DNA of 64,000 bases from Candidatus Latescibacterota bacterium. Its GTDB lineage: Bacteria; Latescibacterota; UBA2968. Numbering within the stretch: position 1 is the first letter of the stretch; every line of letters starts with the position of its first letter. This document shows positions 45,633 to 56,558 of the stretch, one piece after another. The DNA is taken from assembly GCA_965207885.1 (NCBI GenBank), contig OZ242311.1, positions 5,024,001 through 5,088,000 of the forward strand, read 5' to 3'. The notes beneath the pieces were generated by a model that had not been told where the DNA came from, ran no database searches, and saw only the letters and a program-made list of their open reading frames with translations. Made by a program: the position numbers and the translations under genes.

Positions 45633-45648
45633 TGGCATAGACTTTGCA
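45633..45648 (+). promoter_or_regulatory. Sigma54 promoter of the pspA operon
   Basis: TGGCATAGACTTTGCA (GG-N10-GC). Confidence 0.82.
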
Positions 45649-45717: not shown

Positions 45718-46395
45718 ATGGCACGCGGAATTTTTTACAGAATGGCCGACATCGTCAAAGCCAACGTCAACGACCTGATCACCCGCGCAGAAGACCCGGA
45801 AAAAATGATCCGCCAGATGATTCTGGAAATGGAAGAAGCCGTCAACAAAGCCACAGCCTCAGTCGGCACGGCTGTAGCCAATGAAAAACGCCTGGAAAGA
45901 CAATATCTCGAAAAACAAGATCAAATCGAAGCATGGCAAAAAAAAGCCGAATTAGCCGTTGAAGCTGGCGAAGACGACCTTGCACGCCGCGCCCTCGAGC
46001 GCAAAGCTGCAAATCAGGAAGCCACGCACGACCTTGAAGTCGCCCTCGAAGAAAGCCGTAAAACCTCGTCCCAACTCAAACAACAACTCACCCAACTCAA
46101 AGCCAAACTCGACGAAGCCCGCACCCGCCAGGGCACCCTGATTGCTCGCCGCCGTGCAGCCGAAGCCCGCAAGCAAATCGCCAGGGGCCTCTCAGGAGTG
46201 GGTGAAGATGCTTTTTCGAGCTTTGAACGATTCCGTCAGCGCATCGAATCCGAAGAAGCAGAAGCAGAAGCCCATCAAGAAATGGCGAGTGCCGACCCCT
46301 CTCTGGAAGAAGAATTTTCCAAACTCGAGCGCAAAAGCACAGTAGAAGACGAACTCAGTGCGCTAAAAAAGAAAATGGGACAAAAAGATGCGTGA
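45718..46395 (+). CDS. pspA: Phage shock protein A (PspA/IM30, ESCRT-III superfamily)
   Basis: GIFYRMADIVKANVN, AEDPEKMIRQ, GEDDLARRAL, VEDELSALKKK. Confidence 0.95.
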   Translation: MARGIFYRMADIVKANVNDLITRAEDPEKMIRQMILEMEEAVNKATASVGTAVANEKRLERQYLEKQDQIEAWQKKAELAVEAGEDDLARRALERKAANQEATHDLEVALEESRKTSSQLKQQLTQLKAKLDEARTRQGTLIARRRAAEARKQIARGLSGVGEDAFSSFERFRQRIESEEAEAEAHQEMASADPSLEEEFSKLERKSTVEDELSALKKKMGQKDA

Positions 46396-47056
46396 CCTGG
46401 AAAAACTCGCCGATGAAATCGCCAGCAAAATTGACCGCGCGGTCAACGACGCGGAGCGAAAAATAAAAAAGAAATGGAAGGGAAATTGGGAGGCGCGCGT
46501 TCACAGTGCGAGCAGCGATTTCCAAACCGCAACCAATTCATTTAAGCGCGTGCCCGACCGCCTCTCTGACCTCGCCACCGATGGGAGTTGTGCCATGCGT
46601 TATCTCTTCGCTTATGGCTTAATAGGAATGGCTGCACTTATGGGATTTTGCGGCCTCATGCTCGTACTCATTACACTGGTAGAACATCCCCCCTGGGCAG
46701 ACACAAACCCATTCAGGCACGAAGAACTCAGTGCTGGCCTCTTTATAATCGTATTCTCTCAACTTATATGGTGGGCAGGTCGCAGGATCAAAAGATCGGG
46801 AGACAAAAAAGCACATGCCAAAAATCAGCACCGCATACTCCGTCTCGCCCGGGAAAAAGGGGGCAGCCTCACCGTGACAGAAGCCGCCATGGACACCAGA
46901 ATAACAGTTGAAAAAACCGAAGAAATCCTGCGGGAATTAACCATAAGTGGTCATGCGGAAATGCGAATCTCAGATTCCGGGCTGGTCGTTTACCATTTTC
47001 CGGAAATCGAACGCTGGGATGAAAAACACCGCGCGAGACCCGTGGATGAACTCTAA
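46388..47056 (+). CDS. Two-TM membrane protein with a C-terminal winged-helix-like domain
   Basis: Charged helical N-terminus, 2 TM, ILRLAREKGGSLTVTEAA..GLVVYHF. Confidence 0.75.
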   Translation: MRDLEKLADEIASKIDRAVNDAERKIKKKWKGNWEARVHSASSDFQTATNSFKRVPDRLSDLATDGSCAMRYLFAYGLIGMAALMGFCGLMLVLITLVEHPPWADTNPFRHEELSAGLFIIVFSQLIWWAGRRIKRSGDKKAHAKNQHRILRLAREKGGSLTVTEAAMDTRITVEKTEEILRELTISGHAEMRISDSGLVVYHFPEIERWDEKHRARPVDEL

Positions 47057-47077
47057 TGTGTGTGGGAGGACAAAATA

Positions 47078-47275
47078 ATGTTTGAAATTGGAATCATGGT
47101 AGCAATAATCATTCTCGCATCAGCGGCATACAAATACGTTGAGCGCCGAACCCGAGGATCCGTCCCCAGCGATGCAGAAGAACGTATAAACGCCAGAATG
47201 GACGAACTCGACCGCAGGCTCACAGATATTCAGGACGTCATGATCACCATCGACGAAAAACTCAGCAGGAGATAA
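47078..47275 (+). CDS. PspB-like single-TM microprotein 1
   Basis: GGAGGA RBS; TM plus RMDELDRRLTDIQDVMITIDEK coiled coil. Confidence 0.75.
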   Translation: MFEIGIMVAIIILASAAYKYVERRTRGSVPSDAEERINARMDELDRRLTDIQDVMITIDEKLSRR

Positions 47276-47286
47276 GGAGGGGTAAA

Positions 47287-47520
47287 ATGACTAATGTTAT
47301 CGGTGTCACAGTTGGTGGCATATTGATGATCATAATTGTAGGAGCCATTGCATCAGCAGTACACAAATACATTGATCGTCGCACCAAAGGATCCATCCCC
47401 AGCGATGCGGAAAAACGCTTGAATGAGCGAATGGACGAACTCGACCGCAGGCTCACGGACATTCAGGACATCCTCATCACCATTGACGAAAAATTCGACC
47501 GGTCACCCATCACGCGCTAA
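47287..47520 (+). CDS. PspB-like single-TM microprotein 2
   Basis: AGGAGG RBS; paralog of the preceding gene. Confidence 0.75.
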   Translation: MTNVIGVTVGGILMIIIVGAIASAVHKYIDRRTKGSIPSDAEKRLNERMDELDRRLTDIQDILITIDEKFDRSPITR

Positions 47521-47543: not shown

Positions 47544-47906
47544 ATGCGTATCTTTCTTACAATCGTAGTTGGTATTAGCTTGATGACTCTTGCAAGCGGT
47601 ACAGTCGCCTATATTCTCCATGACCCAACATTTGGAGGAGGTCTCGTCCTTGCAGCAGCTTGGGGTGCTATGGCGTTCATTACCTTTTTTGCCATCACAT
47701 TCACATTTGGATCAGAACAAGAAGAAAGAAACAGATCGACAAAAAACAACAACCTGTCTGAAAAACTTTCAAAACGCGTGAAAGAACTCGAAAAACGCCT
47801 CATCGACCTTCAAGACATCGTCATCACCAACGACGATAAACTCGAGCGTCTTAACAACCAATCATCCGTTGCGCCATCTCCACCTCCGCGGACCATCTCG
47901 GATTGA
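47544..47906 (+). CDS. Two-TM protein with the same coiled-coil tail
   Basis: GGAGG RBS; RVKELEKRLIDLQDIVITNDDK. Confidence 0.72.
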   Translation: MRIFLTIVVGISLMTLASGTVAYILHDPTFGGGLVLAAAWGAMAFITFFAITFTFGSEQEERNRSTKNNNLSEKLSKRVKELEKRLIDLQDIVITNDDKLERLNNQSSVAPSPPPRTISD

Positions 47907-47942: not shown

Positions 47943-48113
47943 ATGTTGGCAAAACTCATCGGCATCGTGCTCATCATAATCGGCGGCATTTTCGCCATCC
48001 AGGTTCTCTTTCCGCTCATCGGCTCTCTATTTGAGCTAATCTTTCTCCTGCTCAAACTCGCCATCGCCGTTATATGTATTGGGATCGGTTATCGCTTGAT
48101 CAAAAGAGACTGA
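47943..48113 (+). CDS. 56-aa hydrophobic membrane protein (PspG/LiaI-like), not in the ORF track
   Basis: AAGGA RBS; MLAKLIGIVLIIIGGIFAIQVLFPLIGSLFELIFLLLKLAIAVICIGIGYRLIKRD*. Confidence 0.7.
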   Translation: MLAKLIGIVLIIIGGIFAIQVLFPLIGSLFELIFLLLKLAIAVICIGIGYRLIKRD

Positions 48114-48171
48114 CGGAAAAATCCGTCTTGTCACAAACAAAAGAATAGTAATAAACGAATTACCTTAACGA

Positions 48172-48762
48172 ATGGAGAAAAAAGTGAAAACACAGGATCA
48201 AAACCTGATTCGCGCATCCCTCTCGGGTGACCGCCGGGCATTTGAAACGCTCTACCACAAATATCAAAGTCAGATCTACGGCACCCTCGCACAGCGCATT
48301 TCAGACCGCGACACCATTGACGACCTGATGCAAGACACATTTTTTCGCGCCTATCGCTCGCTCCACACATTCAAAGGCCAGGCGGCATTTTCGACCTGGC
48401 TCACGCAAATTGCCCTCAATGTCTATCGCTCGTACCTGCGCTCGCAGCAAGTGCGGCAAAACTGGGTCTATCAAACCGAAGACCCCGAAGTCGTACACAA
48501 CGTCCTCCGCGACCTCATACCCGGCGCGCTACCAGACCAGATTGTAGAAAAACGCGAACGCATACAATTGGTCCACAAAAGCATACAAAACTTGCCCGAA
48601 CGCTATCGCAAAGCCATGTGGCTGCGCTACGTCATGGACTGGTCCTACGAAGAAATCACACAGGCGCTTCGCGTTCCGCTTGGAACCGTAAAAACCTGGC
48701 TGTGCCGCGCCCGCCGCCAACTCAAAAGCGAATTTCGCAAACTCGGTTTACAACCCGGATAA
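48172..48762 (+). CDS. ECF sigma factor (RpoE/SigW-like)
   Basis: GDRRAFETL, DLMQDTF, FSTWLTQIA, SYEEI..GTVKTWLCRAR. Confidence 0.92.
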   Translation: MEKKVKTQDQNLIRASLSGDRRAFETLYHKYQSQIYGTLAQRISDRDTIDDLMQDTFFRAYRSLHTFKGQAAFSTWLTQIALNVYRSYLRSQQVRQNWVYQTEDPEVVHNVLRDLIPGALPDQIVEKRERIQLVHKSIQNLPERYRKAMWLRYVMDWSYEEITQALRVPLGTVKTWLCRARRQLKSEFRKLGLQPG

Positions 48763-48862
48763 GAAATAACTCTTGCTTTTCGTCCCTTGCATGGACAAAT
48801 TTAGGAACGTAAAGATCCGTTGATGGAACGCGCAACTCTCGGTCCGATTTCTGGAGGTTAAC

Positions 48863-49465
48863 ATGCAGGCATGGTGGTCAGAACTCGCGCCTCTCACTCA
48901 GGTATTCTATGGCTGTGCCGTCTTCTTCACCCTTTTGTTTCTCTGGCAATTTATCACGACACTCATGGGCCTGGGTGATTCCGCGGACGTCATGGACCAT
49001 GACAGCTTCAATGCCAACGATGCGGGGCCAGATGTCGATAATAGTCCTTATGATCACGGTACCGCCACCTTTCAACTGCTCTCACTGCGCTCTGTGATCG
49101 CCTTTGGCATGCTCTTTGGATGGGCAGGCGCACTCTATCTCGACTCGGGACATTCAACCGAAGATTCGGTTCTTCGCGGCCTCATATGGGGCGGCGCGGG
49201 GATGGTCCTGGTTGCATATTTCTTCTACAAAGTGCAACAACTCTCCGAATCGCATAACCGAAACCTATCGTCCTGCATCGGCAATGAAGGCGAAGTCTAT
49301 ATCGACATTCCCGAAAATGGCGCCGGTCAAATCCGCGTGATGGAAAGCGGGGCTGTCAACTACATCTCTGCGCGCAGCAGAGACGGGCAACCCATCCAGA
49401 ACAAAACGCCGGTTCGCGTACTGCGAACACTCGACATAACCACAGTTGAAGTCGAACCCATTTAA
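48863..49465 (+). CDS. NfeD-like membrane protein
   Basis: Three TMs plus OB-fold tail GEVYIDIP..G.I..VRV. Confidence 0.8.
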   Translation: MQAWWSELAPLTQVFYGCAVFFTLLFLWQFITTLMGLGDSADVMDHDSFNANDAGPDVDNSPYDHGTATFQLLSLRSVIAFGMLFGWAGALYLDSGHSTEDSVLRGLIWGGAGMVLVAYFFYKVQQLSESHNRNLSSCIGNEGEVYIDIPENGAGQIRVMESGAVNYISARSRDGQPIQNKTPVRVLRTLDITTVEVEPI

Positions 49466-49487
49466 TCCTGAACTTAAAGGAGGGACA

Positions 49488-51074
49488 ATGCCCACCGAAT
49501 TCATTCTCACCGTACTCCTGGCAGCCGTTGTACTTCTGCTATTCCTCACATTCATCTCGCGTTACAAGCGCTGTCCATCCAACAAAATCCTCGTCATCTA
49601 CGGAAAAACGGGAGGTGGCACAGCCGCAAAATGTGTACACGGCGGCGCAGCTTTTGTCCTGCCCTTATTGCAGGCCTACGACTACCTCGACCTCGAACCC
49701 TTTGTCGTACCCATTGACCTGGACAACGCGCTTTCACAGGAGAACATCCGCGTATCCGTCCCCACCACAGTCACAGCAGCCATCTCTAATCAGCCCGGCG
49801 TCATGCAAAACGCGGCCATCCGCCTTTTGGGCCTGTCCCGCGATCAAGTTCAGAGCCAGGCACAGGACATCATCCTCGGCCAGATGCGCGCAGTCATTGC
49901 AACCATGCAAATTGAAGAAATCAATCAGGACCGACAGGCATTCATGACCAAAGTAAATGATGCCGTCTCCACTGAAATGGAAAAAATTGGTCTGGCCGTT
50001 ATCAACGTCAACATCAAAGACCTCGACGACGAAAGCGGCTACATCAAAGCCATCGGTCAAAAAGCAGCAGCCGAAGCCGTGAACCAGGCATCTATCGACG
50101 TGGCCGAACAAGAACGACACGGACAGGTCGGCGTGGCCGAACGCGCACGCGACCGCCGTCGGGATGTCGCCGCAGCCGAATCAGAAGCCGAAGTTGGCGA
50201 AGCAGAAGCCGCGCGAAACAGACGGCGACAGGTCGCCGCACTTGAATCAGAAGCTGAAATCGGCGAATCAGAGGCCGCGCGAGATAGACGACGACAAGTT
50301 GCCGCACTCGAATCAGAAGCCGAAATTGGCGAAGCACAGGCCGGGCGAGACAAACGCCAAAATGTCGCCGCTCTCGAAGCAGAAGCCGTACAATCAGAAA
50401 CAGAAGCAGAAGCAAAAACAGCGGGCTATCGCGCGGGACAACGCGTTGCAGAAGAAGAAGCGCGCAGAAAATCAGAAGAAGCGACCAAAGCCACAGACGG
50501 TGCCATTCGCGTTGCCCAGGAAACCGCTGAAAAAGCAGCCGAAGACGCCCGAGCACTGCGCGAAGAAGCGCGCTTACGCGCAGAAATCGTCGTCCAGGCA
50601 GAAGCCGAAAAACAGCGCCAGGTCGTTCAAGCAGAAGCCGAAAAAGAACAGCTACGGCTTATTGCCGAAGGTGAAGCCGCCGCTATCCTCGCACAAAAAC
50701 AGGCCGAAGCCGAAGGGACTCAGGCCATTCTCAACGCCAAAGCCGAAGGATACAGACAACTCGTTGAAGCCTGTGGCAGCAACGACCAGGCAGCAGCAGC
50801 CTTTCTGATCATCGAACGCCTCACCGAAGTCGCCAACATCCAGGCCGAGGCCATTAGCAACTTGCCCATCGACAAAGTGATGGTCTGGGACAGCGGCAAT
50901 GGCGAGAGTGGCATGTCCAACCTGGGACAACGCCTCATGGGTGCCATACCGCCCATGCACGATCTGGCGCGCCTGGCCGGGCTTGAATTACCCGAATTTT
51001 TGGGCAAAATGAACGGCGAACAAACGGCAGGGGAAAACGGCAAATCCGACACCTCAGAAGACGCAGAGGCGTAG
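49488..51074 (+). CDS. Flotillin (SPFH / band 7) protein
   Basis: RYKRCPSNKILVIYG, IILGQMRAVIA, AEA-rich coiled coil, IDKVMVWD. Confidence 0.92.
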   Translation: MPTEFILTVLLAAVVLLLFLTFISRYKRCPSNKILVIYGKTGGGTAAKCVHGGAAFVLPLLQAYDYLDLEPFVVPIDLDNALSQENIRVSVPTTVTAAISNQPGVMQNAAIRLLGLSRDQVQSQAQDIILGQMRAVIATMQIEEINQDRQAFMTKVNDAVSTEMEKIGLAVINVNIKDLDDESGYIKAIGQKAAAEAVNQASIDVAEQERHGQVGVAERARDRRRDVAAAESEAEVGEAEAARNRRRQVAALESEAEIGESEAARDRRRQVAALESEAEIGEAQAGRDKRQNVAALEAEAVQSETEAEAKTAGYRAGQRVAEEEARRKSEEATKATDGAIRVAQETAEKAAEDARALREEARLRAEIVVQAEAEKQRQVVQAEAEKEQLRLIAEGEAAAILAQKQAEAEGTQAILNAKAEGYRQLVEACGSNDQAAAAFLIIERLTEVANIQAEAISNLPIDKVMVWDSGNGESGMSNLGQRLMGAIPPMHDLARLAGLELPEFLGKMNGEQTAGENGKSDTSEDAEA

Positions 51075-51096: not shown

Positions 51097-52335
51097 ATGT
51101 CCAACACCCTGAACATAGCCACAGACATAGAATCTCGTTTCCAAATGGCGCTGCAACACGCACGCGGGGCAGCGCCAGGCTCGGGCGACTACAAAAAAGC
51201 GGTTGAACACCTCGAATACATTTTGTCTGTCGATGACCAGAGCGAGGAAATGGACCGCGTCTGTTTTTTGTTGGGCAGCCTGCTCGACGACTTTCCAGAA
51301 AACGCATCTCGAGCCATTGCCGTTTACCGCCGGGGTTTGGAAGCCGATCCCCTCTTTGCGCCCGGGCACAACAACCTGGGCGTTTTGCTCATGCAAGATG
51401 GGCAAATCCTATCGGCTCTTGGCGAATTTAAAATCGCCGTACACCTCGAACCCGATTACATGCTCCCCTATCGCAACCTCGCCCGATTGCTCTTTCAACA
51501 CATGAGCCCGGCACAAATGGAACGCGAATACGCAAGCATCACCGAAGAATTTGGCGTTAGAGCATCGCGCATTCTCGCCCGCCTATCTCTCGAACTCATA
51601 GACCTTGGGCGCGCACAGGTCTATGAAAGCCTCTACACGCACGGCCATCGCATCAAAAACCTGATGGGTCTCTCCGGCAGCCGAATGCGTCGCGCCATAC
51701 GCAATTTACCGCCAAATACCGACGGTTTGGATGATCTGAAAGACATCGCAAACGAACAAGAACACATCTACAGCCAATGGGTTGCCTACTTGCGGTCTAT
51801 GAAACAAGACACTATGAATCCCGCGCTGGTCGATGTGTCCCAACTCATTGAAAAAATGACCCACAGACTCTCTGCACAAGCAGGGGACAAAGAACTCATC
51901 TTTGCCGCCGAACCTCATGTGCCTCAGGTAAAAGCGGACGCTGGCATGTTATCTGAAGCCGTCACAAACCTGACCCTCAACGCCATCGAAGCCGTTGAAA
52001 ATAATGGCGTGGTGAGAGTACAGGTCGGTGCCGATACAGAGCGCAGTTCGGTTTATATTGAAGTGGAAGACAATGGCCCCGGCATTCCCGAAAATTTGCA
52101 AACCCGCATATTTGACCCCGGATTTTCAACGCGAGAAAGGGGCAATGGCTATGGGCTGAGTATATGCTCTCGCATTGCAGCGGCACACCGCGGTACGTTG
52201 CGCGTGATCAGTCGTCCGGGTGCAGGCGCGGTTTTTCGCATTGACCTACCCATCGATTTTGAAGTCTCAACACAACACGACAGCATTGGCCTGCAACACA
52301 ACGTACCCGATACCTCGCGCGATCCAAATAGCTGA
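51097..52335 (+). CDS. Cytoplasmic TPR-containing histidine kinase
   Basis: TPR (GHNNLGVLL), H-box GHRIKN, NLTLNAIEA, DNGPGI, GYGLS; no TM segment. Confidence 0.88.
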   Translation: MSNTLNIATDIESRFQMALQHARGAAPGSGDYKKAVEHLEYILSVDDQSEEMDRVCFLLGSLLDDFPENASRAIAVYRRGLEADPLFAPGHNNLGVLLMQDGQILSALGEFKIAVHLEPDYMLPYRNLARLLFQHMSPAQMEREYASITEEFGVRASRILARLSLELIDLGRAQVYESLYTHGHRIKNLMGLSGSRMRRAIRNLPPNTDGLDDLKDIANEQEHIYSQWVAYLRSMKQDTMNPALVDVSQLIEKMTHRLSAQAGDKELIFAAEPHVPQVKADAGMLSEAVTNLTLNAIEAVENNGVVRVQVGADTERSSVYIEVEDNGPGIPENLQTRIFDPGFSTRERGNGYGLSICSRIAAAHRGTLRVISRPGAGAVFRIDLPIDFEVSTQHDSIGLQHNVPDTSRDPNS

Positions 52336-52362: not shown

Positions 52363-53772
52363 ATGACTGAAATTATCGTTGCTGACGACCAGATAGAAGT
52401 CCTCGACATGCTGATTCGAAGCCTGCGGGAAGACACGCGCAAGGTCCATGCCTTCTCTACCGGACGCGAAGCTCTGGCATATCTGCAACAGCATCCCAAT
52501 CAGATTGGCCTGGCCATTCTCGACCTCGATTACGGACCCGATGAACCCGATGGCCTCGAAATTTTGCCACAAATGCTCGAATCGGTTCCCGACCTGCCCG
52601 TCATTATGCTCACCGGACAAGGCACAATAGACACTGCCGTGGCTGCACTGCGATTGGGCGCAACAGACTTTATTGAAAAAGACTTTTATATCGAAGACAA
52701 AATCGAACTCAGCCTTGAAAAACTCGACCGCGTGTATCAAGCACTTAAGGAAAACGCCCAACTGCGGGCCGAAGTTCAGGACCTGGGGCGCGAAAACCAA
52801 TTCTACCGAGACGAATTTGGCAAGCGTTATCAAATCATCGGCTCCAGCCCCAAACTCCAGCAAATCCTCCAGCGAGCGCAAACCGTAGCTCCCATCCCCC
52901 GGCCCGCGCTCATCACGGGAGAACCCGGCACGGGCAAAGAACTCGTCGCCGCGGCCATCCACTATGGCAGTGACCGCAAAGACCGTCCCTTTGTCAAAGT
53001 CAATTGCGCCGCCATTGCCGACCAATTGCTCGAAAGCGAACTCTTTGGACACGAAAAAGGGGCTTATACAGGCGCGACAGAAGCCCGCACGGGCAAATTT
53101 GAAGCCGCGAGTGGCGGCACCCTGTTCCTCGATGAAATCGGCAACACCACCCCCGAATTTCAGCAAAATGTGTTGCGAGCCATTGAATATAGCGAAATTC
53201 AGCGCGTGGGCAGTGCGACACCCATCTTTGTCGATGTTCGCGTTATTGCCGCCACGAATACCGACCTCGAAACGGAAATTGCCGAAGGTCGATTCCGCCA
53301 GGACCTCTACGACAGATTGCGCTTTGAAGTCTTGCACATGCCCCCGTTGCGCGAACGCCGAGAAGACATTCCCGCATTAGCCGATTATTTTGTCGCACAA
53401 ATCGTCGAAGAAGTACCAGGCCTGCAAAAACGCGATTTTTCCGATGCGGCAACAGAACGCCTGATGACATATAGCTGGCCGGGCAATGTGCGCGAACTCA
53501 AATTTGCGGCCGAACGCGCGGCCTGTGTCGCCCGAGGGACAGAGATTGAACCGGGCGATTTGCCCCCCGAAGTTTCTCAACAAGCGCCCCAATCACCCGA
53601 ATTGAACGACGGTTTTGAATCACAAGTGCAATCCTATGAACTGAGTCTATTGCGGCGCATTCTCGATAAAGTCTCCTGGAACCAGCGCGAAGCCGCCAAA
53701 CAACTCAAACTCAGCTACGACCAATTTCGCCACCTGTACCGCAAATATAAACTCAACAAAGAAAAACCCTGA
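52363..53772 (+). CDS. Sigma54 response regulator, REC plus PspF-like AAA+ and HTH
   Basis: ADD/LDLD receiver, GEPGTGKE, GAYTGA, PspF-type RAIEY, DRLRFEV and LSYDQFRHL. Confidence 0.9.
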   Translation: MTEIIVADDQIEVLDMLIRSLREDTRKVHAFSTGREALAYLQQHPNQIGLAILDLDYGPDEPDGLEILPQMLESVPDLPVIMLTGQGTIDTAVAALRLGATDFIEKDFYIEDKIELSLEKLDRVYQALKENAQLRAEVQDLGRENQFYRDEFGKRYQIIGSSPKLQQILQRAQTVAPIPRPALITGEPGTGKELVAAAIHYGSDRKDRPFVKVNCAAIADQLLESELFGHEKGAYTGATEARTGKFEAASGGTLFLDEIGNTTPEFQQNVLRAIEYSEIQRVGSATPIFVDVRVIAATNTDLETEIAEGRFRQDLYDRLRFEVLHMPPLRERREDIPALADYFVAQIVEEVPGLQKRDFSDAATERLMTYSWPGNVRELKFAAERAACVARGTEIEPGDLPPEVSQQAPQSPELNDGFESQVQSYELSLLRRILDKVSWNQREAAKQLKLSYDQFRHLYRKYKLNKEKP

Positions 53773-54208: not shown

Positions 54209-55406
54209 CATAGTACACGACAAAAAATAAAAGACCTGTGAAAAAAGCTAAAAAGAGTTAGGTTTGAATGTCCCAAGACAAACCTTTCTCATCTTAACAA
54301 GGCACAGGTCTATGTCTCCTGAAACTATTGAACTTCAAACGATTATGCAAGGATATTTTCACTGGCATAAAGCCCGAATAACGTTTACCGCTGCGTTCAT
54401 ATTGTCGCTGATAAAATTGCGTAGCGTCAATTTTATGAAACTGGCAAACGCACTCAATGGAACCGTCAAGCAGAAATCTAATTATCGTCGTATCCAACGC
54501 TTCTTTGCCCACTTTGCCTTACCCTATGCGTGTGTGAGACAATTGATCTTGCACTTATTACCTATAAAGTCGGATTTTATAGTCTCAATAGATCGCACCA
54601 ATTGGAAGTTGGGAAAATTCAATATCAACATCCTAACCGCAGGCATTATCTATGAAGGGGTCGCCTTTCCTATCTGTTGGCACTTGTTAAAAAAACGGGG
54701 CAATTCCAATAGTGATGAGCGTATCCATTTGATGCAAGAAATGCTCAACTGCATCTGCAAATCGCATATCCGCGTTGTCGTCGCAGACAGAGAATTTATT
54801 GGAAGAGAATGGTTTAGGTGGTTAGACACACAAAATATACCCTTTGTTATTCGCATCAAGGAAAACGCTCTTGTCTCATCAGGCGGTAGAGAGATCCCCA
54901 TAAGAAAACGGTTTGAAAATCTTAATATCCATCAGCAGGTCAACTTGTGCAAACGCCACCGCGTTTATGACCTGCCTGTATATCTGTCTGCACTAAGATT
55001 GAAGGACCAATACCTCATTCTTGCCAGCAACCAAAAAGGTCAAGCCGCATTGGATACCTATAAAAAACGATGGGGCATTGAAGTCCTTTTTGCCAATCTT
55101 AAAAGTCGAGGATTTAATCTGGAAGAGACCCATCTTATACATCAAGACCGCATTGAGAAACTCATCGCGCTTTTGGCCATTGCCTGCATCTGGGCGCATA
55201 TCATCGGCGAATGGATAGCAAAAACAAATCCTTTGACGATCAAAAATCACGGGCGGATGGAGAAAAGTCTCTTCCGATATGGGTTGGACTATTTGCAGTA
55301 TGTCCTGCTCAATATAAACCAACAAACCCAACAGTTCCTCATATGCATTCGTTTACTGAGTAATCCGCCACTGTTTAAAACAATTTAAGTTTTGTCGTGT
55401 ACCATG
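54209..55406 (+). mobile_element. IS4-family insertion sequence, copy 2
   Basis: TIRs catagtacacgacaaaa / ttttgtcgtgtaccatg; TSD AAAATTCTT at 54200-54208 and 55407-55415. Confidence 0.93.
54312..55388 (+). CDS. IS4-family DDE transposase
   Basis: IDRTNWK, ADREF, YKKRWGIE; paralog of 16532-17608. Confidence 0.93.
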   Translation: MSPETIELQTIMQGYFHWHKARITFTAAFILSLIKLRSVNFMKLANALNGTVKQKSNYRRIQRFFAHFALPYACVRQLILHLLPIKSDFIVSIDRTNWKLGKFNINILTAGIIYEGVAFPICWHLLKKRGNSNSDERIHLMQEMLNCICKSHIRVVVADREFIGREWFRWLDTQNIPFVIRIKENALVSSGGREIPIRKRFENLNIHQQVNLCKRHRVYDLPVYLSALRLKDQYLILASNQKGQAALDTYKKRWGIEVLFANLKSRGFNLEETHLIHQDRIEKLIALLAIACIWAHIIGEWIAKTNPLTIKNHGRMEKSLFRYGLDYLQYVLLNINQQTQQFLICIRLLSNPPLFKTI

Positions 55407-56558
55407 AAAATTCTTAGAAGAAAAAAATCTCTTTTGGGCCGTCATTCTGGTAGCTTGTCTCTTATTTTTGCCAGGCCTCGTTTTTGTTGTCAAATGCTTC
55501 TACATCTATCTTCTGGCAGCAGACCGGGGGGTACACATCGATGAAGCTTATGTCGAAAGTCGCAAAGCCGTAGAACGCTACGGTTTCTTTCGCCACTGCG
55601 CGCTTATACTCACCGCGCTCGGAATTCTTGTCGGCTCAGTGATACTCGTCGAGAACATCGTCGATAATACCTTCGCCACATTCTGTGTCTTTGTTCTCTT
55701 TCAACCCCTCGCGCTCGGGATTTTTGCATCGGCCTACAACCAGACCCTCTGCGAAGAAGCGCGACAGTGGGAAAGCTACAAACAACAATTTTCGGAAATG
55801 CGCGATGAATTGCAAACAGCGCACGACATGCAAATGGGTCTATTGCCGCAATCCAGTCCCGACCTGCCGGGTTTTGCACTCGACGGAACCTGTATTCCCG
55901 CCAACAGCGTCGGCGGGGATTACTATACGTACCGCTGGTTGGATGAAGACAAAACAAAACTCGGCATCGTCGTTGCCGATGTCTCTGGCAAAGCCATGGA
56001 AGCAGCCGTGACCGCCGTGCGTTTCAATGAAATGCTCCGCTATGAATGCCAAAATCGCGTTGTACCAGCCGATATTCTCGACGGTCTTAATGACTCACTG
56101 GAAGGTCAGATTGACCAGGCCACATTTATTACCTGCTGCATCGCTGTGCTCGACGTACCCACCGGCGAAGTCACGCTTGCAAGTGCAGGACACTGTCCAC
56201 CGATCCATCTATCCAATCAATCTCAATTTATCGACCTCGCGGGATATCCCCTTGGCATCCCGGCACTTATACGCCCCCAAACTCCCTATCGAGTTGAGCA
56301 TTTAACACTCGCGCCCGGTGATCGCCTCATATTATACTCCGATGGTGTCGTCGAAGCCCAAAATGCCAAACGCAACTTCTTTGACGACGACCGATTTATA
56401 CGTTGCCTTGAACGCGCATCCATAGACCGGACACCCACAGACCTGATTGCCGATCTCGTCGCCGATGTCAAATCCTTTATTGGCAAAGCGCGGCGCACCG
56501 ACGACATAACCCTCGTTATTCTCCAGCGCGATTTATCCCTTAACTCCTGACCCATCTC

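Follow-up and report, generated by a model that had tools for sequence, protein, structure and literature searches.

The window analysed here is a stretch of 64,000 nucleotides (nt) from a Candidatus Latescibacterota bacterium (assembly GCA_965207885.1, contig OZ242311.1, positions 5,024,001 to 5,088,000 of the forward strand). At 46388..47056 on its + strand a gene overlapping the end of pspA encodes a membrane protein of 222 amino acids (aa), with an ATG start, an N-terminal helix, two transmembrane helices, a winged helix (wH) and an acidic tail. In our judgement this protein may well anchor the membrane-repair protein PspA at the membrane or act as its adaptor, through a winged helix that binds protein, much as in the VIA1-VIPP1 pair of chloroplasts and cyanobacteria. 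VIA1-type and PspBC-type partners of PspA are already known; what is new is a winged-helix candidate encoded together with pspA, and it suggests that a VIA1-type adaptor arrangement may also exist in an ordinary non-photosynthetic bacterium. The first-pass annotation of the window had proposed an ESCRT-II-like adaptor that nucleates PspA polymers at the membrane rather than binding DNA, and parts of that proposal are carried forward here.

The PspA encoded in the window (225 aa; 45718..46395, + strand) belongs to the PspA/IM30 family of the ESCRT-III superfamily (PF04012, E-value 1.4e-46), and it matches TIGR02977 at 2.9e-53, yet under the equivalog cut-off of that model. The ATG of the gene for the 222-aa protein falls in the final codons of pspA, before its stop, and the two frames have 8 nt in common (ATGCGTGA). 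An identical overlap was measured from tblastn ends in 38 of 44 loci of related genomes, so the gene start inside the end of pspA reported by the first-pass annotation recurs well beyond the window. The protein matched no Pfam or NCBIfam family, while a word-indexed search returned 137 homologues at E ≤ 1e-3, all annotated as hypothetical, and the alignment of its close family has strongly conserved columns. Contigs from RNA libraries, assembled from sponge metatranscriptomes of two studies (X15 record 3, X16 record 8 and X18 record 16, the last running from 46304 to 47235), span the pspA/wH junction; these are weak evidence, as a single transcript is not provable from them and such libraries can contain DNA. 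Given the homologues, the conserved columns and the coverage by RNA-library contigs, 46388..47056 is a true gene and not a chance open reading frame (ORF). The source genome is one contig of 6.2 Mb, its relatives are Latescibacterota metagenome-assembled genomes with a few labelled Gemmatimonadota, and the sequencing runs that hold this stretch are mostly sponge metagenomes. The genome has three PspA paralogues including the one in the window; the other two lie at G000:C1:4697028-4697711 and 5281588-5282202 and are 30% and 44% identical to the window's PspA.

Residues 1-70 of the protein (46388..46597, + strand) are predicted to hold a cytoplasmic amphipathic helix and a conserved motif, RVPDRLSDLATDGSCAMRY. 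AlphaFold2 places a helix at residues 2-52, the region 1-52 being modelled as helical, with low pLDDT at 38-59. Within the motif region (residues 55-72) D61 is invariant and A63, G66, C68, R71 and Y72 are nearly invariant in the close-family alignment. This part is a lineage-specific extension and is shortened in f3, a family more distantly related but still within the class of the window genome, where BLAST matches begin at residue 34-114. Two transmembrane helices follow (residues 72-98 and 113-131; 46601..46780, + strand) with a short acidic outer loop between them. Residues 72-98 (YLFAYGLIGMAALMGFCGLMLVLITLV) contain zero charged residues, residues 113-131 contain a single one at the first position, and AlphaFold2 draws long helices across both hydrophobic segments, in agreement with the two transmembrane segments of the first-pass annotation; the assignment comes from hydrophobicity, charge counts and these modelled helices. 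The net charge is +2 in the N-terminal region, -2 in the 14-residue loop and +6 in residues 132-146, and because of this pattern the protein fits a two-helix inner-membrane anchor with both ends in the cytoplasm. Its soluble parts would then lie on the predicted cytoplasmic side, the same side as PspA.

Residues 147-204 (46826..46999, + strand) follow the order of a winged helix, H1-b1-H2-H3-b2-wing-b3. In the full-length AlphaFold2 model a strand at 160-162, helices at 163-170 and 174-186 and strands at 191-194 and 200-203 were obtained at a pLDDT of about 80-87, and the domain folded alone with a 30-sequence alignment reached a mean pLDDT of 89.5 and a pTM of 0.74. Solved winged helices were matched with Foldseek TM-scores of 0.6-0.73 and VIA-align Z scores up to 9.8, which upholds the C-terminal winged helix that had been suspected from the sequence pattern. 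The S-D-S-G of the wing loop shows no variation in the close family, and its G is invariant in the wide family. The protein ends with an extra helix (205-215) and a tail whose conservation is seen in the alignment columns (residues 205-222, EIERWDEKHRARPVDEL; 47000..47053, + strand). The tail finishes in ARPVDEL, with E212, A216 and V219 invariant and D220 and L222 nearly so, and its EK..A.. pattern is common to distant family members of 150 aa.

The pairing with pspA extends across related genomes. In the 44 loci retrieved with the family alignment (group 1), pspA lies directly upstream of the wH gene in 43, the sole exception being a zinc-ribbon-transmembrane-wH protein in a Gemmatimonas sp. 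record (G001). In the 20 loci fetched from f3, pspA is immediately upstream every time, with the wH protein 33-41% and PspA 60-67% identical to those of the window, giving 63 of 64 loci overall. A sample of 151 genomes of the phylum contained the wH domain in 89, distributed as 28/29 in family f1, 18/19 in f2, 42/64 in f3 and 0/38 in other families. In one related genome (L048, 5980-6200) the wH gene is reduced to a remnant with a broken frame, in which the N-terminal codons and the winged-helix part are left and the transmembrane region is gone; pspA and the genes further downstream are intact there.

Comparison of the domain with solved structures pointed to ESCRT-II. A profile of 48 family members matched human SNF8 (ESCRT-II Vps22/EAP30) at an E-value of 8.4e-7. 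Since this first alignment took in the hydrophobic region, the profile was rebuilt from the winged helix alone (A4), and it matched residues 159-204 of SNF8, the second winged helix, at 1.2e-5 (domain E-value 2e-4), with the next chain at 0.012. SNF8 is the sole significant match of the family profile among solved structures. Foldseek returned weak generic winged-helix matches headed by CadC, MarR and TFE, and nothing at E ≤ 1e-3 for either the full-length or the domain model; SNF8 (3cuq_A) was at rank 49 among the matches listed for the wH model and had the lowest root-mean-square deviation (rmsd) there, 1.5 Å over 59 columns at 27% identity. VIA-align against 48,161 chains ranked human SNF8 third (Z 9.4) and yeast Vps22 (1w7p_A) fourth (Z 9.3, rmsd 1.7 Å, 65 residues). 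The likeness to the C-terminal winged helix of Vps22/SNF8 consists of a tight superposition (rmsd 1.5-1.7 Å) and a profile match (E-value 1.2e-5 to 8.4e-7). The subunits of ESCRT-II have tandem winged helices and assemble into a soluble heterotetramer, whereas the protein here has a single winged helix after two transmembrane helices. The first-pass annotation had named Vps25, Vps22 and CdvB as the winged helices to compare: SNF8/Vps22 was matched, at scores tied with DNA binders, while Vps25 and CdvB were not among the 50 matches listed in either structure search, which does not exclude them. In ESCRT-II it is Vps25, not Vps22, that is described as contacting ESCRT-III (PMC10936438). The Vps22/SNF8 winged helix binds protein and not DNA, and the domain studied here probably does the same.

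DNA-reading winged helices carry a basic recognition helix and wing. In the 222-aa protein, helix 3 has a net charge of -2 (mean -2.0, range -4 to +1, in 30 family members) and the wing -1 (mean -1.8), with a mean of -3.7 for the core domain across the family; this net acidity of helix 3 and wing makes DNA binding by the domain unlikely. None of the DNA-binding winged helix-turn-helix families in Pfam was matched by the protein, and its relatives gave sub-threshold matches only (MarR_2 in 7/48, HTH_IclR in 9/48, EutK_C in 11/48 and SelB-wing in 10/48). These results bear on the idea that the winged helix binds the psp promoter and that the protein is a membrane-tethered regulator of, in principle, the ToxR or BcrR kind. 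The fold is typical of DNA-binding regulators, and MarR, ArsR and CadC chains top the structure lists. Makarova et al. also state that PspA genes often adjoin wH genes (PMC10936438), citing Popp et al. (2022), who describe these frequent neighbours as helix-turn-helix (HTH) DNA-binding regulators (PMC9239133). Against it stand the acidic charges and the lack of any DNA-binding Pfam family at cut-off. The operon, moreover, needs no further DNA binder because a sigma-54 element and a cognate-looking REC-AAA+-HTH activator with an HTH of its own are present in it (both described below). We consider such a regulator highly unlikely, and the earlier preference for protein over DNA binding keeps the support of the acidic helix 3 and wing, while the structure comparisons tie with DNA binders and do not settle it.

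Our preferred reading, an adaptor that offers its winged helix to PspA, leans on the comparison with VIA1 (CPLD50/VPL3; Slr1603 in Synechocystis). VIA1 is described as a thylakoid and envelope membrane protein with three transmembrane helices and two winged helices that binds VIPP1; its predicted interface on VIPP1 helix alpha-1 was validated with loop mutations that weaken co-immunoprecipitation and abolish function, and its authors term the binding mode ESCRT-II-like (PMC13505992). Yeast Snf8 is among the top remote structural matches reported for VIA1 (10.1101/2023.10.10.561251), and a 2026 review presents VIA1 as conserved in photosynthetic organisms and as a proposed recruiter of Vipp1 (PMC13051332). 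Both proteins thus combine a membrane anchor with a soluble winged helix for a member of the PspA/VIPP1 family, as shown for VIA1 and as proposed here, and ESCRT-II Snf8/Vps22 is the nearest remote match of both. They differ in build, with three transmembrane helices and two winged helices in VIA1 as against two transmembrane helices, one winged helix and a conserved tail here (VIA1 being compared by its published description). They also differ in setting, since VIA1 belongs to photosynthetic lineages, whereas the gene here comes from a non-photosynthetic, sponge-associated phylum and overlaps pspA in a sigma-54/two-component operon.

Small inner-membrane proteins encoded beside pspA in a stress operon are known in PspB/PspC of E. 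coli, LiaI of B. subtilis and PspM/Rv2743c of M. tuberculosis, and the 222-aa protein resembles them in this respect. Unlike it, PspB, PspC, LiaI and PspM are without a winged helix, and they have no sequence or domain kinship to it: PspB (PF06667) and PspC gave no match to the protein at E ≤ 1, and the LiaI family was unmatched too. In the part of Ravi et al. drawn on here, PspA has many partners, and those with a winged helix-turn-helix are of PadR, LiaR or archaeal ESCRT-II type and not of the two-transmembrane winged-helix (2TM-wH) family (PMC11237479). Within the literature covered on ESCRT-II-like or winged-helix PspA partners outside photosynthetic lineages (supplements and the web application of Ravi et al. 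being outside this scope), we found the VIA1 papers and reviews, and did not find the bacterial 2TM-wH family described.

On this basis the 222-aa protein would be embedded in the membrane as a partner of PspA, within a phage-shock-type operon of Latescibacterota that depends on sigma-54, and because the two genes overlap by 8 nt it would be made in step with PspA. The cytoplasmic winged helix, probably through the S-D-S-G wing loop and acidic helix 3, would form together with the C-terminal tail a surface that captures PspA at the membrane, as the winged helices of VIA1 grip helix alpha-1 of VIPP1 or as ESCRT-II acts on ESCRT-III. In function it would then be a counterpart of PspB/PspC, LiaI or PspM, the docking proteins of PspA homologues. 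It would decide where PspA assembles once the membrane is damaged, with possible feedback to the TPR kinase and NtrC-type activator that would drive the sigma-54 promoter. Contact with PspA, and likewise the nucleation of PspA polymers, is something we infer by analogy with these systems.

Several results weigh against the adaptor reading. On the side of the fold, the Pfam EAP30 model (PF04157) had no match to the 222-aa protein at E ≤ 1, nothing in the entire genome at E ≤ 10, and touched 4 of 48 relatives at E ≤ 1, the best at 0.017 and below cut-off. A profile built from Latescibacterota only (A1) did not find SNF8 among solved structures and gave chance-level matches, the best with an E-value of 0.19, and in VIA-align the scores of SNF8 and Vps22 are tied with those of MarR/ArsR DNA binders within one Z unit. 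On the side of gene linkage, all loci that show the synteny belong to a single class of a single phylum, and related genomes are not independent observations. Orthologues of pspA that are 59-72% identical stand without a wH gene in four genomes (G258, G269, G203 and G210; loci L105, L106-L108 and L109), G258 being a one-contig genome and G203 and G210 belonging to another class, and because of these PspA does not require the wH gene. In a sample of 201 genomes of the phylum of G001, Gemmatimonadota, the wH domain was found in 44, often with four matches each, and none of 30 wH loci from this sample had a PspA match within 1.5 kb (0/29 when L079, from the genome G098 flagged as unpublished, is left out); a Pfam search of 30 neighbouring ORFs from seven of the loci found no member of the PspA or Snf7 families. 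Finally, of 193 longer proteins found with the A4 profile, the 120 that were listed included no fusion of PspA with the winged helix, which is weak evidence as the search scored just the 8000 candidates with the most words in common. The domain is therefore best described as most similar to an ESCRT-II winged helix, and it cannot be filed as a member of the EAP30 family. Of the ESCRT-II-like adaptor put forward in the first-pass annotation, the winged-helix fold, a profile match to the second winged helix of SNF8/Vps22 and the linkage to pspA in 63 of 64 loci have stood, while the EAP30 family did not match and Vps25, the subunit it had invoked, was not among the matches listed.

The Gemmatimonadota loci lead to a wider family. 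An exhaustive search of representative sequences returned 559 clusters at E ≤ 1e-3, 27 at 1e-10 and 7 at 1e-30. Distant members have only the transmembrane hairpin, the winged helix and the tail in common and are mostly about 150 aa long; residues 70-222 of the window's protein align with them, and it has the family architecture of a transmembrane hairpin, a winged helix with a G-G turn and D-S-G wing, and an EK..A.. tail. The same domain terminates proteins that start with RDD, TMEM43 or DUF6232 modules or with zinc ribbons, and relatives with tandem winged helices occur within the family (P0133, P0136, P0141 and P0167). Ten clusters that were looked up had no informative name on any, a look-up in the ESM Atlas gave unnamed clusters only (scores 0.85-0.88, at the level of leads), and a tblastn search of the 150-aa member P0158 against plasmids had zero matches. 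The protein belongs to an extensive family of membrane-tethered winged helices that has neither a name nor a Pfam or NCBIfam model. In the Gemmatimonadota sample, where zinc-ribbon-transmembrane-wH fusions are also present, a gene with two TFIIB-type zinc ribbons (PF13453) follows the gene for the 150-aa 2TM-wH form, as tested with Pfam in two loci and as a homologous ORF in 16 of 16; examples of these arrangements lie at L055 1613-2410, L063 1640-2380 and L049 5404-6234. YdjG of the B. subtilis pspA operon is also described as having two zinc ribbons (PMC11237479), an indirect hint that the family may have a link to PspA systems.

With a family of this breadth, the link to pspA could be a matter of operon inertia specific to one lineage, and the protein a general membrane-tethered winged-helix scaffold with another partner. 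The 559 clusters, the fusions to unrelated RDD, TMEM43, DUF6232 and zinc-ribbon modules, the 30 Gemmatimonadota loci away from pspA and the constancy of the double zinc-ribbon neighbour of the 150-aa form would all be in keeping with this. In Latescibacterota, however, the gene stays in place and tightly spaced behind pspA down to 33% identity while other genes of the cluster vary, and the two genes overlap by 8 nt; we find inertia improbable as the whole explanation for the pairing.

The genes around pspA add a second line of argument. A -24/-12 element of the sigma-54 type, TGGCATAGACTTTGCA (45633..45648, + strand), lies some 70 nt upstream of the start codon of pspA and is the sole match to TGGCA[CT]-N5-TTGC[AT] on both strands of the window. 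A GG-N10-GC/TGC element is found at the same position in 42 of 43 orthologous loci, and inspection by eye showed an element close to where the pspA frame starts in 19 of 20 f3 loci. It looks like a promoter, and the operon looks sigma-54-dependent as in enterobacteria. Behind the wH gene are three tandem paralogous small proteins (47060-47275, 47287-47520 and 47544-47906, + strand), each with one transmembrane helix and a C-terminal coiled-coil helix, a PspB-like build. They match one another and have a common coiled-coil motif, DELDRRLTDIQD; the Pfam PspB model did not match them, and a weak match to the C-terminus of PspC was found at an E-value of 0.096. Copy number varies between 0 and 4 among loci (merged tblastn intervals), and PspB-like genes come after the wH gene in 18 of 20 f3 loci in one to three copies. 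The first of the three probably begins at ATG 47078, behind a GGGAGGA motif, and not at GTG 47060.

Further downstream are a soluble histidine kinase with N-terminal TPR repeats (51097..52335, + strand; HATPase_c E-value 1.4e-23, TPR matches below cut-offs) and an NtrC-type response regulator, a sigma-54 activator of REC-AAA+-HTH build (52363..53772, + strand; Sigma54_activat 4.5e-65, Response_reg 2.5e-17). The latter is the best of 31 matches in the genome to the PspF model (E-value 1.6e-92, below the equivalog cut-off). A sigma-54 promoter with an AAA+ activator is also what the E. coli psp system has; PspF is described as lacking a receiver domain and a partner kinase (PMC11237479), whereas the activator here has both. 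A DDE transposase gene (54264-55388, +) and a gene for a membrane SpoIIE/PP2C phosphatase (55468-56550, +) lie just past the activator.

Kinase and activator, a co-conserved pair that does not figure in the first-pass annotation, open another role for the wH protein, which would sense membrane stress, or help to sense it, on behalf of the soluble TPR kinase, with PspA binding secondary or absent. Its transmembrane hairpin would feel the membrane, and its winged helix or acidic tail would contact the kinase, perhaps at the TPR repeats, and set the phosphorylation of the activator. No long hydrophobic stretch is apparent in the kinase sequence, and because it has TPR repeats and no transmembrane segment it would need a membrane input. 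Conserved C-terminal peptides are the kind of element that TPR domains bind, and the C-terminal peptide of the wH protein resembles such elements. Kinase and activator accompany the wH gene in 37 of the 44 group-1 loci, and all 20 f3 loci have homologues of kinase and activator, directly after the PspB-like genes. In the four genomes with pspA and no wH gene, no kinase or activator homologue was found within 5 kb, and three of these loci (family f6) had no sigma-54 motif, a motif that the two genomes of another class lack. On the other hand, it is to pspA that the wH gene is coupled, while the kinase gene is 4 kb off in the window, and the same tail and winged helix occur in 150-aa relatives whose sampled neighbours were no kinases. 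We hold a sensor role of this kind to be possible but rather less than probable, and the most serious rival of the adaptor reading. The two are compatible, since in E. coli both roles, binding PspA and signalling, are ascribed to PspC (PMC7619361).

Between the PspB-like genes and the kinase, the window has a block (47943-51074) with a 56-aa hydrophobic protein that probably has two transmembrane helices (47943..48113, + strand; conserved in many group-1 loci, with no family found), an ECF sigma factor (48172..48762, + strand; Sigma70_r2 and Sigma70_r4_2, with TIGR02937 above cut-off), an NfeD-like membrane protein (48863-49465, + strand; a weak NfeD match at 0.0024, below cut-off) and a flotillin/SPFH protein (49446-51074, + strand; Band_7 E-value 3.1e-27). 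Its make-up is reminiscent of the B. subtilis operons for PspA and flotillin under SigW control. No homologues of the ECF, NfeD and flotillin genes were found within 5 kb in the 20 f3 loci, and because they are absent from these compact operons the block is a later insertion in the window's family only. For the same reason the constant core of the operon is the sigma-54 promoter, pspA, the wH gene, the PspB-like genes, the soluble TPR kinase and the NtrC-type activator.

The ECF gene, 1.1 kb downstream of the wH gene, has no recognisable anti-sigma gene alongside, and the 222-aa protein, being membrane-anchored with cytoplasmic domains, could be thought of as its anti-sigma factor. As a conserved role this is removed by the f3 loci, where the wH gene is kept in 20 of 20 with no ECF homologue within 5 kb. 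Neither Pfam nor NCBIfam gave an anti-sigma domain, it is with pspA that the wH gene is coupled, and four genes lie between the wH and ECF genes, leaving an anti-sigma function very improbable in the window as well.

How PspA-type proteins reach the correct membrane site is an open question in the field, and reviews assign ESCRT-II-like partners to archaea, eukaryotes or plastids. We consider it unlikely that the bacterial 2TM-wH family, VIA1 and the winged helices of ESCRT-II are one ancient lineage of membrane-proximal adaptors for the ESCRT-III superfamily, with a wH/ESCRT-III partnership older than archaeal and eukaryotic ESCRT and with the protein here nucleating or positioning PspA polymers at the damaged membrane. 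If this were true, the pair would persist, operon-encoded and experimentally tractable, in ordinary bacteria. This work delimits a family of membrane-tethered winged-helix proteins, large (559 representative clusters) and unnamed. If its Latescibacterota member does act as an adaptor for PspA, the link between winged helices and ESCRT-III-like proteins would extend deeper into bacteria, a non-photosynthetic host included, and one winged helix on a transmembrane hairpin, far simpler than chloroplast VIA1, would be available for testing how winged helices recruit or nucleate ESCRT-III-like polymers.

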